Origin: Escherichia coli
GTDB taxonomy: Bacteria > Pseudomonadota > Gammaproteobacteria > Enterobacterales > Enterobacteriaceae
Direction: 5' to 3' (one strand)
Assembly (NCBI RefSeq): GCF_003334315.1
Contig: NZ_QOWR01000004.1
DNA: 64,000 nucleotides
The first letter of the stretch is position 1. The number at the start of each line of letters is the position of its first letter. This document shows positions 61,847-64,000 of this stretch, piece after piece. The notes under the pieces were generated by a model. It searched no databases and was not told the origin of the DNA. It worked only from the letters and a program-made list of their open reading frames with translations. The translations under genes were made by a program, and so were the position numbers.

Positions 61847-62845
<999 letters not shown>

Positions 62846-63163
62846 TTTCTTGCGTTATTTTCGGCACCTTTTATGTAGCGAAGGTGCCGGAATATATTCT
62901 CTTTTGTTACTTATTTGTATACCGTGCACAATATTTTTATCCCTCATATTTATAGGGTAAATTACCTGTAAAGTAGTGTCTAATTACCCGCCTCGCAAAT
63001 TCCAGTTTTCAAATATCTATTTCAGGTCAAAAGATTGAATTATTCACTGGAGACGATTCGTAAATTCGCTGGATTTTTGACTAAAGTTTCTTTAGGATTT
63101 GTCTCATCGTATGATTAATTACACCAATCGTTCAACGTCTTGCTGATAAGTGATGGCGATTAT

Positions 63164-63304
63164 ATGAGGTTAGCAATGCCTTCTGGAAATCAGGAACCCC
63201 GCCGCGATCCTGAATTAAAACGTAAAGCCTGGCTGGCGGTTTTTCTTGGTTCTGCACTTTTCTGGGTGGTTGTCGCACTGCTGATTTGGAAAGTGTGGGG
63301 ATAA
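63164..63304 (+). CDS. ymiA: small single-pass membrane protein YmiA
   Basis: 46 codons MRLAMPSGNQEPRRDPELKRKAWLAVFLGSALFWVVVALLIWKVWG (42 from second ATG 63176); below track cutoff, read directly from sequence. Confidence 0.55.
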   Translation: MRLAMPSGNQEPRRDPELKRKAWLAVFLGSALFWVVVALLIWKVWG

Positions 63305-63306
63305 CT

Positions 63307-63474
63307 ATGGTCGGTCAGGAGCAACTGGAGTCGTCACCATTATGCCAGCATAGTGACAATGAAACAGAAACGAAACGGGAATGTTCCGTCGTTATTCCAG
63401 ACGACTGGCAACTAACATCGCAGCAGCAAGCCTTTATAGAACTGTTTGCTGAAGATGATCAGCCGAAACAATAA
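63307..63474 (+). CDS. yciX: small acidic protein YciX
   Basis: 55 codons from ATG 63307 (MVGQEQLESSPLCQHSDNETETKRECSVVIPDDWQ...), starting 2 nt after ymiA stop. Confidence 0.55.
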   Translation: MVGQEQLESSPLCQHSDNETETKRECSVVIPDDWQLTSQQQAFIELFAEDDQPKQ

Positions 63475-63846
63475 TTATCATCATTCTTATTACCCATTTT
63501 TAATGAATTACAGGGCTTTTAATACACCGCAGCAATAACAGGTTGAGTTATCTCAACACAAAGTAATAACCGTTAAGGGTGTAGCCTATGATCAACACAA
63601 ATATGAAATATTGGTCCTGGATGGGCGCGTTTTCTCTGTCGATGCTCTTCTGGGCCGAACTCCTCTGGATCATTACTCACTGATCCCTGACCCCGTTGCG
63701 GCGGGGTTTTCATTTGCTTTGCCACAAGGTTTCTCCTCTTTTATCAATTTGGGTTGTTATCAAATCGTTACGCGATGTTTGTGTTATCTTTAATATTCAC
63801 CCTGAAGAGAATCAGGGCTTCGCAACCCTGTCATTAAGGAGGAGCT

Positions 63847-64000
63847 ATGTCGTCAACCCTACGAGAAGCCAGTAAGGACGCGTTGCAGGCCAAAGATAAA
63901 ACTTACCACTACTACAGCCTGCCGCTTGCTGCCAAATCACTGGGCGATATCACCCGTCTACCCAAGTCACTCAAAGTTTTGCTCGAAAACCTGCTGCGCT
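63847..64000 (+). CDS. acnA: aconitate hydratase A (5' partial, continues beyond window)
   Basis: ATG 63847 followed by MSSTLREASKDALQAKDKTYHYYSLPLAAKSLGDITRLPKSLKVLLENLLR. Confidence 0.92.
   Translation, partial: MSSTLREASKDALQAKDKTYHYYSLPLAAKSLGDITRLPKSLKVLLENLLR

Follow-up and report, generated by a model that had tools for sequence, protein, structure and literature searches.

Two short open reading frames lie side by side on the plus strand of the window, by which we mean the whole 64,000-nt stretch of Escherichia coli DNA analysed here. The first, ymiA, runs from an ATG at 63164 to a TAA at 63302-63304 (46 codons) and encodes MRLAMPSGNQEPRRDPELKRKAWLAVFLGSALFWVVVALLIWKVWG; the second, yciX, opens with the ATG at 63307 and closes with a TAA at 63472-63474 after 55 codons (MVGQEQ...DDQPKQ). 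Read from the sequence and the list of open reading frames, both match RefSeq K-12 features exactly, namely ymiA (b4522, 141 nt) and yciX (b4523, 168 nt), which in K-12 also lie 2 nt apart and are placed between cysB and acnA. A preliminary description of this DNA had given the two frames, their coordinates, the 2-nt gap and the names, all of which agree with the K-12 annotation. The window YciX is K-12 b4523 in coordinates and length, and its exact sequence occurs in a cluster named YCIX_ECOLI. Table 1 lists these genes along with the other features of the locus.

Table 1. Genes and sequence elements at the ymiA-yciX locus (positions in the window)
Feature	Position	Strand	Remarks
Terminator-like hairpin after cysB	62859..62892	+	13-pair stem then T-rich tail; putatively delimits the ymiA transcription unit on its 5' side
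Conserved non-coding promoter/leader of ymiA	62970..63163	+	strongly conserved; column identity averages 80% over 20 genera
ymiA (b4522)	63164..63304	+	annotated 46 aa; predicted tail-anchored, single-pass inner-membrane micro-protein
GAGGT Shine-Dalgarno for ATG 63176	63167..63171	+	4 nt upstream (6 nt counting the GAG core alone)
GGGG Shine-Dalgarno-like element for yciX	63297..63300	+	within the two final ymiA codons, TGG GGA, 6 nt before ATG 63307
Putative coupling junction	63302..63309	+	ymiA stop TAA, 2-nt spacer ct (63305-63306), yciX ATG; from sequence
yciX (b4523)	63307..63474	+	55 aa, predicted soluble; variable disordered N-terminal half, conserved C-terminal helix motif
Conserved YciX motif VIPDDWQLTSQQQAFIELFAEDD	63391..63459	+	residues 29-51; predicted helix residues 38-51
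Rfam STnc180 (RF02079) match	63515..63717	+	200.8 bits, E = 1.3e-43; covers ymiC and terminator
ymiC (b4741)	63588..63683	+	31-aa small membrane protein, third operon gene
Intrinsic terminator of ymiA-yciX-ymiC	63689..63718	+	8-pair GC-rich stem then T run; upstream of acnA

In the window cysB ends at 62845 and the acnA ATG is at 63847. The pair had been described as lying upstream of acnA, which is correct as to order, but ymiC and an intrinsic terminator intervene. Of 5426 complete E. coli genomes, 5420 carry the pair. Our comparative set comprised 78 usable species loci, and the reading frame 3' of ymiA was read in 80; cysB is found 5' and acnA 3' of the pair in nearly all of them, making ymiA-yciX a single-copy core locus with cysB-acnA synteny kept across about 80 species.

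This is a real, ordinary and previously known pair. It does not differ from the K-12 ymiA-yciX-ymiC operon in locus, coordinates, proteins or 2-nt gap (Vellappan et al., 2024-25 preprint, PMC11429745), and operon structure, PhoQP dependence, expression and overexpression phenotype have all been published earlier. Coming upon an annotated pair again has little discovery value and modest value as a lead; what is added here to the known operon is how widely the YciX family occurs, the conservation of the junction, and a conserved 42-codon ymiA core.

Conservation of the two proteins

Conservation of both reading frames and of their synteny, the check put forward in the preliminary description, comes out clearly: in all 78 species loci both frames are open and under purifying selection, which puts the pair far beyond chance, and the synteny is kept in nearly all. 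For ymiA, dN/dS is 0.12 across species loci and 0.07 within Escherichia, where third-position variation is of the classic kind. YmiA scores 96.8 bits against NCBIfam NF000536 (cut-off 30), residues 5-46 filling model positions 1-42 of 42, and Pfam PF22868 (YmiA-like) is precomputed for essentially all YmiA homologues. The first frame had been noted to carry a hydrophobic single-pass segment, and this is borne out: the segment lies at about 63230-63289, AF2 models a helix over residues 12-41 at a pLDDT of about 90, and a GFP-YmiA fusion is found at the membrane (PMC11429745). It is a single C-terminal transmembrane helix that follows a basic KRKAW tail, in which K19, R20, K21 and W23 are invariant in the YmiA alignment, and the net charge of the N-terminal tail is positive in most loci. 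This is a tail-anchor topology, and YmiA is indeed listed as a predicted tail-anchor protein (10.1101/111716).

Where ymiA translation starts is a matter of which evidence one consults. Initiation profiling supports a translation start at ymiA, and in E. coli it favours the MRLAMP start at 63164 (Weaver et al., 10.1101/511675). The 46-codon length given in the preliminary description matches that experimental call, but the comparative data indicate a conserved coding core of only 42 codons, beginning at the second ATG (63176). The ATG for M5 is present in 77 of the 78 loci and that for M1 in 47. The GAGGT serving the second ATG overlaps the first ATG codon of annotated ymiA; it is found in 69/78 loci, with GAGG invariant in 20 genera, and the Shine-Dalgarno duplex energy is -6.3 kcal/mol for ATG 63176 versus -4.6 for ATG 63164. 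Longer forms of ymiA (54 aa from TTG 63140, or from an ATG at -33 in other genera) were rejected, the 33 nt 5' of the second ATG having no codon periodicity.

Downstream of ymiA, a yciX frame of at least 45 codons begins 0-4 nt after the ymiA stop in 78/78 usable species loci. These positional orthologues are roughly 55 codons long and share a C-terminal motif, VPxSWxLTxxQxxFIxxF, in which P31, W34, L36, Q40, F43 and I44 are invariant among 57 YciX sequences; the more permissive form derived here from the positional orthologues, PxSWxL(T/S/N)xxQxxFIxx(F/M/L), is matched by the window YciX. The dN/dS of yciX is 0.25 overall, with 0.14 in the C-terminal half and 0.40 in the N-terminal half. In the AF2 model the N-terminus is disordered and there is one confident C-terminal helix (residues 38-51, pLDDT 85-91). 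The sequence is devoid of any hydrophobic segment, and the prediction for YciX is a soluble protein with extensive disorder. Its description as acidic holds for E. coli, where the net charge is -9, but this is a peculiarity of Escherichia: the family mean is +1.3.

Searches with YciX against Pfam, NCBIfam, PDB sequences, PADLOC and PHROGs gave nothing significant, and beyond Escherichia the orthologues carry the label "hypothetical protein". A word-indexed homology search returned only Escherichia and Shigella, as though YciX were an Escherichia orphan. That reading is overturned by the 80 species loci read downstream of ymiA and by a full-library profile search, which recovers 87 representative clusters, almost all of 50-60 aa. 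Neither YmiA nor YciX has an established molecular function, as had been stated at the outset. Published support for the YciX protein is indirect, in the form of a proteomic peptide listed under 'yciX (ymiA)'; YmiA itself is present at about 1000-3000 copies per cell by targeted mass spectrometry (PMC12529367).

Transcript boundaries and expression

The leader in front of ymiA lacks codon periodicity and has a substitution level of 0.15, versus 0.59 at synonymous sites in the ymiA core. A conserved RNA fold or riboswitch was not found in the leader (RNAalifold -2.5 kcal/mol, no covariation; no Rfam match there). A 27-aa TTG open reading frame that overlaps the conserved block (63035-63118) was considered as a conserved upstream micro-ORF and discarded, since it contains stop codons in Pseudescherichia and Cedecea.

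The ymiA-yciX-ymiC operon is PhoQP-dependent and induced by low Mg2+, the operon assignment and reporter data coming from one study (PMC11429745). When we searched for a PhoP box near -35, defined as (T/G)GTTTA-N5-(T/G)GTTTA, the only matches, at 63078-63094 and 63089-63105, had three mismatches, and matches of that quality often arise by chance in the window; the hexamers at 63078-63105 resemble PhoP half-sites weakly and are phased at 11 bp. Matches to a CpxR-box pattern were likewise at chance level. The PhoQ dependence of the operon could be exerted by an indirect route.

From the start of ymiA to the terminator behind ymiC (63164 to 63689), the plus strand was searched for terminator-like sites and none was found. 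The third gene is recognised by NCBIfam NF041484 (66.3 bits, cut-off 42) and occurs in 66/78 loci, usually some 100-150 nt past yciX; an equivalent hairpin and T tract follow ymiC in most loci. A 31-aa small open reading frame in the yciX 3'UTR, with no promoter of its own, had been reported in the sPepFinder preprint, which cites dRNA-seq for there being no internal promoter before ymiC (10.1101/2020.05.05.079178); the region right before ymiC is reported to be inactive. The same part of the transcript, right after yciX and including neither yciX nor ymiA, is what the enterobacterial sRNA family STnc180 matches. Carrying as it does a conserved 31-codon frame, the matched stretch is a coding 3' segment and not a purely non-coding sRNA.

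Geometry of the junction and probable translational coupling

The distance between the two genes bears on their joint translation. Of 76 junctions, 57 have a gap of 2 nt, 15 a gap of 1 nt, three a gap of 4 nt and one a gap of 0; two further loci also have a gap of 0, giving 0-4 nt in 78/78. The spacer dinucleotides nevertheless differ between loci and ymiA may end in any of the three stop codons, while the yciX-ymiC spacer, which serves as an internal control in these loci, is between 43 and 152 nt long. The Shine-Dalgarno-like element is conserved too: all 76 junctions examined have TGGGGN or TGGAGC there (final Trp-Gly or Trp-Ser codons), and the predicted pairing with the anti-Shine-Dalgarno, -5.5 kcal/mol in E. 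coli, is -4.7 or stronger in each of the 78 loci, a range in which few background positions fall (only 16% are at -4 or below). The pair therefore has the hallmarks of coupled genes, that is, a start codon near the upstream stop, conserved as such, and a ribosome-binding site for the second gene that is embedded in the coding sequence of the first.

In being on the same strand, co-transcribed, and joined by a start a few nucleotides from the stop with an embedded Shine-Dalgarno sequence, ymiA-yciX resembles trpE-trpD, trpB-trpA, ribosomal-protein operons, mgtS-mgtT and yriA-yriB. The last two are overlapping pairs in the same low-Mg2+ regulon. Unlike pairs of the trpE-trpD type, ymiA and yciX are usually separated by +2 nt and do not share an ATGA or TAATG overlap, and coupling is here read from sequence; one distant relative does have an ATGA overlap.

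Taken together, the fixed gap and the Shine-Dalgarno-like element favour translational coupling of ymiA and yciX. The gap is held at 0-4 nt while stop codon and spacer bases vary and the next spacer along changes by tens of nucleotides. The two are genuine genes, and we consider it probable that they are the conserved core of a single stress-induced ymiA-yciX-ymiC transcript and are co-produced by coupling at their junction. Since the yciX start sits 0-4 nt past the ymiA stop, with a Shine-Dalgarno sequence contained in the final two ymiA codons, ribosomes ending on ymiA would unfold and load the yciX start, either by termination-reinitiation or by facilitated de novo initiation, and translation of yciX would depend on that of ymiA. 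YmiA and YciX might then be made together and in a fixed ratio whenever the promoter fires, at low Mg2+ through PhoQP and probably under envelope stress.

One could object that the genes are simply packed closely, with yciX initiated independently, a 2-nt gap devoid of mechanistic role, and proteins that need not cooperate. This is a minority reading in our judgement, albeit one with some substance. yciX owns a Shine-Dalgarno-like element, conserved in all loci, so that independent initiation is possible. Partition-function folding of the 78 junctions did not reveal consistent occlusion of the yciX start by RNA structure, nor a conserved hairpin that would hide it, the mean unpaired probability being 0.43 at the yciX start versus 0.50 at the ymiA start. 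A gap of 13 nt is seen in a more distant relative, a stand-alone YciX-like gene occurs elsewhere, and a linked AF2 model of the two proteins (see below) carries no interface signal. Against mere packing stand the constancy of the gap in 78 loci despite changing spacer bases and stop codon, the contrast with the adjacent yciX-ymiC spacer, and the co-occurrence of the pair in nearly every locus. Moreover, the yciX Shine-Dalgarno is part of the ymiA coding sequence, and ribosomes that translate ymiA must therefore cross it.

Possible functions of the pair

If coupling yields the two proteins side by side, what might they do? YmiA is expected to expose a basic N-terminal tail of roughly 20 residues to the cytoplasm and almost nothing beyond its membrane helix. 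YciX, about 55 residues long, would reside in the cytoplasm, its C-terminal half forming one amphipathic helix with an N-cap (PxSWxLTxxQxxFIxxF). We infer that the two act in one pathway, for example with YciX at the membrane together with YmiA, or with its helix docked on a larger target. A direct complex is a different matter. Joined as YmiA-(GGGGS)5-YciX and modelled by AF2 from a paired alignment of 59 sequences, a weak test given its shallow alignment and lack of PAE, the proteins reach a pTM of 0.27, and confidence in the YciX helix is about 72 as opposed to 85-91 for YciX alone; low pTM and lowered helix confidence leave a direct YmiA-YciX complex unsupported. The preliminary description had called the second protein a soluble partner, of which solubility stands as a prediction, but partnership is conjecture, the linked model giving no sign of a complex.

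Among PhoP-regulated small membrane proteins that modulate larger membrane proteins, MgrB acts on PhoQ, MgtS on MgtA and PitA, and PmrR on LpxT. YmiA is like these in size, in its single transmembrane helix, in its induction condition and in its comparable overexpression phenotypes (PMC11429745). It is unlike them in having essentially no periplasmic part, being tail-anchored, and a conserved soluble protein encoded alongside it; family searches did not find sequence similarity of YmiA to MgrB, MgtS or PmrR. Overexpression of YmiA slows growth, lengthens the lag and produces elongated cells, all of which requires the start codon, while deletion of ymiA has no reported phenotype in the same study, which did not include a yciX deletion (PMC11429745).

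On a bolder and rather doubtful view, YmiA and YciX are the two components of a hitherto unrecognised envelope-stress effector that occurs across Enterobacterales, in which YmiA positions or releases co-translated YciX at the inner membrane and the YciX helix (W34, L36, Q40, F43, I44) docks on a larger target. Candidates for that target would be a sensor kinase, a transporter or a cell-division or envelope enzyme, and the fast-evolving disordered N-half of YciX might tune the interaction by lineage, being acidic in Escherichia and basic elsewhere. Such docking would explain the elongation seen when YmiA is overexpressed. Less speculatively, YciX appears to accompany YmiA across Enterobacteriaceae as a conserved and, judging from the junction, tightly coupled second protein. 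For work on small proteins of the low-Mg2+/PhoQP response, this means that YmiA phenotypes should be studied with YciX and not with ymiA alone, and the six invariant residues of the helix motif are specific targets for mutation in YciX.

Two other readings were considered. ymiA might be a regulatory leader frame, where the act of translating it and not its peptide controls yciX and ymiC, as with mgtL in Mg2+-responsive operons. A short frame directly before yciX, in an operon induced by low Mg2+, invites the comparison, but we regard it as very improbable: the peptide is conserved (see dN/dS above), detected at 1000-3000 copies per cell and localised to the membrane, its overexpression phenotype depends on the start codon, and neither the leader nor the junction yielded a conserved RNA structure or attenuator. 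Equally hard to credit is a toxin-antitoxin-like module with YmiA as hydrophobic membrane toxin and YciX as acidic neutraliser. The growth delay caused by excess YmiA and the strongly acidic E. coli YciX would fit. However, YciX acidity is not kept in the family, loss of ymiA has no reported phenotype (in a study without a yciX deletion), no PADLOC or PHROGs match places the pair in a toxin, antitoxin or defence family, and the locus is single-copy, core and syntenic across about 80 species, not carried on mobile elements.

That yciX is a chance frame in the ymiA 3' untranslated region, as the Escherichia- and Shigella-only word matches and the lack of a Pfam or NCBIfam model might suggest, is refuted by its conservation (a positional orthologue open in 78/78 loci, six invariant residues, the dN/dS of the C-terminal half and the 87 profile-search clusters, nearly all of 50-60 aa) and retains a negligible probability.

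A few matches to YciX call for separate comment. Two long algal-type low-complexity proteins that match its profile (P0220 and P0229) were judged spurious. In three database frames (P0004, P0013 and P0038) the YmiA N-terminus is fused to YciX via a 17-nt deletion; none of the 5426 complete E. coli genomes contains the fusion junction, and we therefore regard the three frames as either rare variants or artefacts of assembly. In one lineage, S. enterica subsp. arizonae, the YciX motif has been lost by deletion and ymiA is kept.

Identity of the pair and published work

Reading the sequence at 63164-63474 recovers the two ORFs and the 2-nt gap that the preliminary description had placed there, the bases ct separating the ymiA stop from the yciX ATG. 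The identical features in the RefSeq annotation of K-12 MG1655 are ymiA (b4522, 141 nt) and yciX (b4523, 168 nt), again 2 nt apart, with cysB upstream and ymiC (b4741) and acnA downstream; 5420 of 5426 complete E. coli genomes also carry the 311-nt pair, each match being at least 95% identical. Because sequence read, K-12 features and genomes agree, the observation is confirmed: the pair is real, previously annotated and partly characterised, and as such already known. The locus is the same as that of the known ymiA-yciX-ymiC operon, and every testable feature of membership was found here.

Features in and around the ymiA-yciX locus
Feature	Position	Strand	Remarks
cysB	61871-62845		upstream of ymiA
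Terminator-like hairpin	62859-62892		after cysB
Hexamers TGACTA, TCTTTA, TGTCTC	63078-63105		11-bp phasing
ymiA	63164-63304	+	ATG opens 46-codon frame MRLAMPSGNQEPRRDPELKRKAWLAVFLGSALFWVVVALLIWKVWG; TAA at 63302-63304
yciX	63307-63474	+	ATG opens 55-codon frame MVGQEQLESSPLCQHSDNETETKRECSVVIPDDWQLTSQQQAFIELFAEDDQPKQ; stop at 63472-63474
Rfam STnc180 (RF02079) match	63515-63717	+	200.8 bits
ymiC (b4741)	63588-63683	+	downstream of yciX
Intrinsic terminator	63689-63708		after ymiC
acnA	start 63847		downstream of ymiC

Mg2+ starvation induces 17 small proteins, YmiA and YmiC among them (2024-25 preprint, PMC11429745). In the same study GFP-YmiA is located at the cell periphery, ymiA deletion has no phenotype, and overexpression brings a lag of 8-10 h and cell elongation, an effect that needs the start codon and does not need PhoQ. 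Targeted mass spectrometry puts YmiA at ~1000-3000 copies per cell (PMC12529367), and YmiA is listed among predicted E. coli tail-anchored proteins (10.1101/111716). A Salmonella transcriptome study places yciX with the Cpx-regulon genes that egg white induces (PMC6374596). YciX itself is analysed in none of these ymiA/yciX studies, and they give neither protein a molecular function, in line with the earlier statement that neither has an established one. We group the locus with MgrB, MgtS and PmrR, small membrane proteins regulated by PhoP, from which it differs in having no known target and in having a conserved soluble companion. What the present comparison adds is YciX as a conserved family without a model, with a defined motif and apparently tight coupling to YmiA; motif and coupling make a specific set of experiments worthwhile.

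The YmiA core and the YciX family

YmiA scores 96.8 bits against NCBIfam NF000536 (cut-off 30), the 42 positions of the model aligning to residues 5-46, and homologues with Pfam PF22868 occur in Escherichia, Citrobacter, Salmonella, Enterobacter, Leclercia, Kosakonia and many further Enterobacteriaceae. For comparison we fetched 80 species loci, of which 78 were usable; the exceptions to the yciX pattern described below, all outside the 78, are S. enterica subsp. arizonae, a non-syntenic Sodalis locus and a Leclercia assembly that clearly contains frameshift errors. The ATG at 63176 (M5) is kept in 77 of the 78 and preceded by GAGGT in 69, whereas that at 63164 (M1) is an ATG in only 47 and is replaced by non-start codons (ACG, AAG, GAG, others) in 25. 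No codon periodicity was found across loci in the 33 nt before M5, where entropy per site at the three codon positions is 0.29, 0.34 and 0.27 (core: 0.37, 0.27 and 1.07) and "synonymous" divergence is only 0.15 (core: 0.59). Since M5 is conserved, M1 is not and the preceding sequence lacks periodicity, the unit conserved as coding sequence is the 42-codon core. What precedes M5 evolves as a constrained non-coding leader holding the Shine-Dalgarno (SD) sequence; in E. coli the SD energy is -6.3 kcal/mol for M5 versus a weak -4.6 for M1.

Experiment (63164, 46 aa) and comparison (only 63176 with GAGGT conserved, 42-aa core) are at odds over the ymiA start. TetRP placed the main initiation signal at a site unlike the 2006 and 2014 annotations (PMC4909307), and Weaver et al. 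(10.1101/511675) state that ymiA "likely initiates with MRLAMP", not MLISDG or MPSGNQ. The experimental 46-aa call for E. coli, where M1 is present and favoured by profiling, is not overturned; the four extra residues are, on this comparison, lineage-specific.

Searched by word index, E. coli YciX matched Escherichia and Shigella sequences only; neither Pfam nor NCBIfam, both searched, holds a family for it, and a search for a relative of known structure found none. Past the ymiA stop, however, a 49-59-codon ORF occupies the same position in nearly all 80 loci, and the YciX profile matched 87 clusters, nearly all of 50-60 aa, among 1.84 billion representative proteins, which rules out YciX as an Escherichia orphan. 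Its orthologues in Enterobacter, Kosakonia, Citrobacter, Salmonella, Kluyvera and Atlantibacter are named "hypothetical protein" and nothing else. Conservation of both frames, proposed earlier as a check, is borne out: yciX is found in 78 of 78 usable loci, and dN/dS (Nei-Gojobori, all pairs) is 0.12 for ymiA and 0.25 for yciX (0.07 and 0.36 within Escherichia only).

The N-terminal half of YciX is poorly conserved (dN/dS 0.40, against 0.14 in the C-terminal half). The alignment has six invariant residues, P31, W34, L36, Q40, F43 and I44, and the consensus is VPxSWKLTPQQQAFIDxFAEDxxKKQ. In an AlphaFold2 model built on this alignment the first 30 residues are disordered (pLDDT about 50), and a short turn at the SW motif precedes a single helix at residues 38-51 (pLDDT 85-91). 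The description of YciX as acidic stands for E. coli (net charge -9) and falls for the family: because -9 is the extreme and the mean is +1.3, acidity is not a family trait, the common charged feature being the C-terminal AEDD/AEDE patch only. In S. enterica subsp. arizonae (L040, ~2630-2720) an internal yciX deletion takes out the PxSWxL...FI motif, ymiA and ymiC being intact.

Klebsiella and Raoultella are absent from the YmiA matches listed and from the 80 loci, many sister genera being present; the pair may be absent there, or these genera may have fallen outside the sample. In one fetched locus (L082:1501-1680) a stand-alone YciX-like ORF (…IPASWQLNEAQQAFIEDLW…) is flanked by an ABC-transporter gene and an MFS gene, with no YmiA-like ORF found upstream; it may be a paralogue acting without YmiA. 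Four predicted ORFs from metagenome and Logan assemblies (P0004, P0013, P0038, P0002) join the N-terminus of YmiA to the YciX frame, 17 nt being deleted from the stretch of ymiA that encodes the transmembrane segment; as none of 5426 complete E. coli genomes carries this junction, each probably reflects an assembly artefact or a rare allele.

The stop-start junction and its interpretation

A gap of 2 nt separates the ymiA stop from the yciX start in 57 loci; gaps of 1, 4 and 0 nt occur in 15, 3 and 1 loci, and two further loci also have a 0-nt gap. In C. amalonaticus and S. enterica subsp. diarizonae a GTG or ATG abuts the stop, the latter (L037) having an intact yciX that starts with GTG. The junctions comprise 11 distinct spacer sequences and use all three stop codons; as a control in the same genomes, the spacer from yciX to ymiC is 43-152 nt. 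In a distant low-GC relative (L084:1394-1662) a 36-codon YmiA-like ORF (…LRRKVLLTIIISCTFFWLAVILFIWCFT) overlaps a YciX-like ORF by ATGA, and the pairing therefore reaches past the cysB-acnA context; in a second distant relative, where the cysB-aconitase context is the same, the gap is 13 nt. Before its stop, ymiA ends in TGG GGN in most loci and in TGG AGC in Cedecea and relatives, and the GGGG or GGAG so supplied precedes the yciX ATG by 6 nt in E. coli. SD:anti-SD energy there is -5.5 kcal/mol and no weaker than -4.7 at any locus, with only 16% of background positions reaching -4. When 115 nt around each junction were folded, the yciX start was not consistently occluded (mean unpaired probability 0.43, versus 0.50 at the ymiA start).

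These comparisons support selection that keeps stop and start side by side, the ribosome-binding site of the second gene lying within the first: an anatomy of translational coupling that does not prove dependence, and one that likens the pair, from sequence comparison, to stop-start coupled bicistrons. The best-supported reading, which we consider probable, is that a single stress-induced mRNA would yield two products, a membrane micro-protein with a tail anchor and a soluble protein that is disordered for the most part and has one conserved helix, with yciX translationally coupled to ymiA so that both are made together. That the two also act together physically is suggested by co-occurrence and coupling but is a tentative proposition, against which a linked YmiA-YciX AlphaFold2 model counts (pTM 0.27, confidence of the YciX helix lowered).

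Independent initiation of yciX, with the spacing merely compact, is an unlikely alternative to coupling. Far less probable is a role for ymiA as a regulatory leader ORF, which is contradicted by conservation at the peptide level and by detection of the protein. Equally improbable is a toxin-antitoxin-like pair, given a core, syntenic, single-copy distribution, PADLOC and PHROG searches without a match, and an acidity of YciX that is not conserved. A chance yciX ORF is refuted by its conservation.

Transcript and flanking DNA

Synteny holds, with cysB upstream in almost all loci and acnA downstream in most. Because ymiC occurs in only 66 of 78 loci, ymiA-yciX is the more conserved core. The STnc180 match consists of the ymiC ORF and terminator; this catalogued enterobacterial "sRNA" is therefore a protein-coding 3' segment of the ymiA-yciX-ymiC mRNA.

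The ~200 nt before ymiA (~62970-63175, +) have 80% mean column identity across 20 genera, unusually high for intergenic DNA, and a substitution level of 0.15, far under the ymiA synonymous level of 0.59. Across loci no conserved RNA fold was found in this region, nor any Rfam match; the three hexamers look like weak PhoP half-sites at a mismatch level common by chance, and a CpxR-box search stayed at chance level. The block's conservation is thus not explained by an RNA fold, Rfam or a convincing PhoP or CpxR box. A seemingly conserved 27-codon TTG ORF (MNYSLETIRKFAGFLTKVSLGFVSSYD, 63035-63118, +) overlaps the most conserved part, and because stops break it in Pseudescherichia and Cedecea, what is conserved there is the DNA and not a coding sequence.

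Cunningham, Gruer and Guest (1997) reportedly placed one acnA promoter some 407 bp ahead of acnA, a position that would be inside yciX. In some strains IS1 elements sit in or beside the cysB-acnA intergenic block, as in the E. coli records NZ_CM135183.1 and NZ_CP074680.1, the latter keeping 57% of the region, with ymiA and yciX unannotated.
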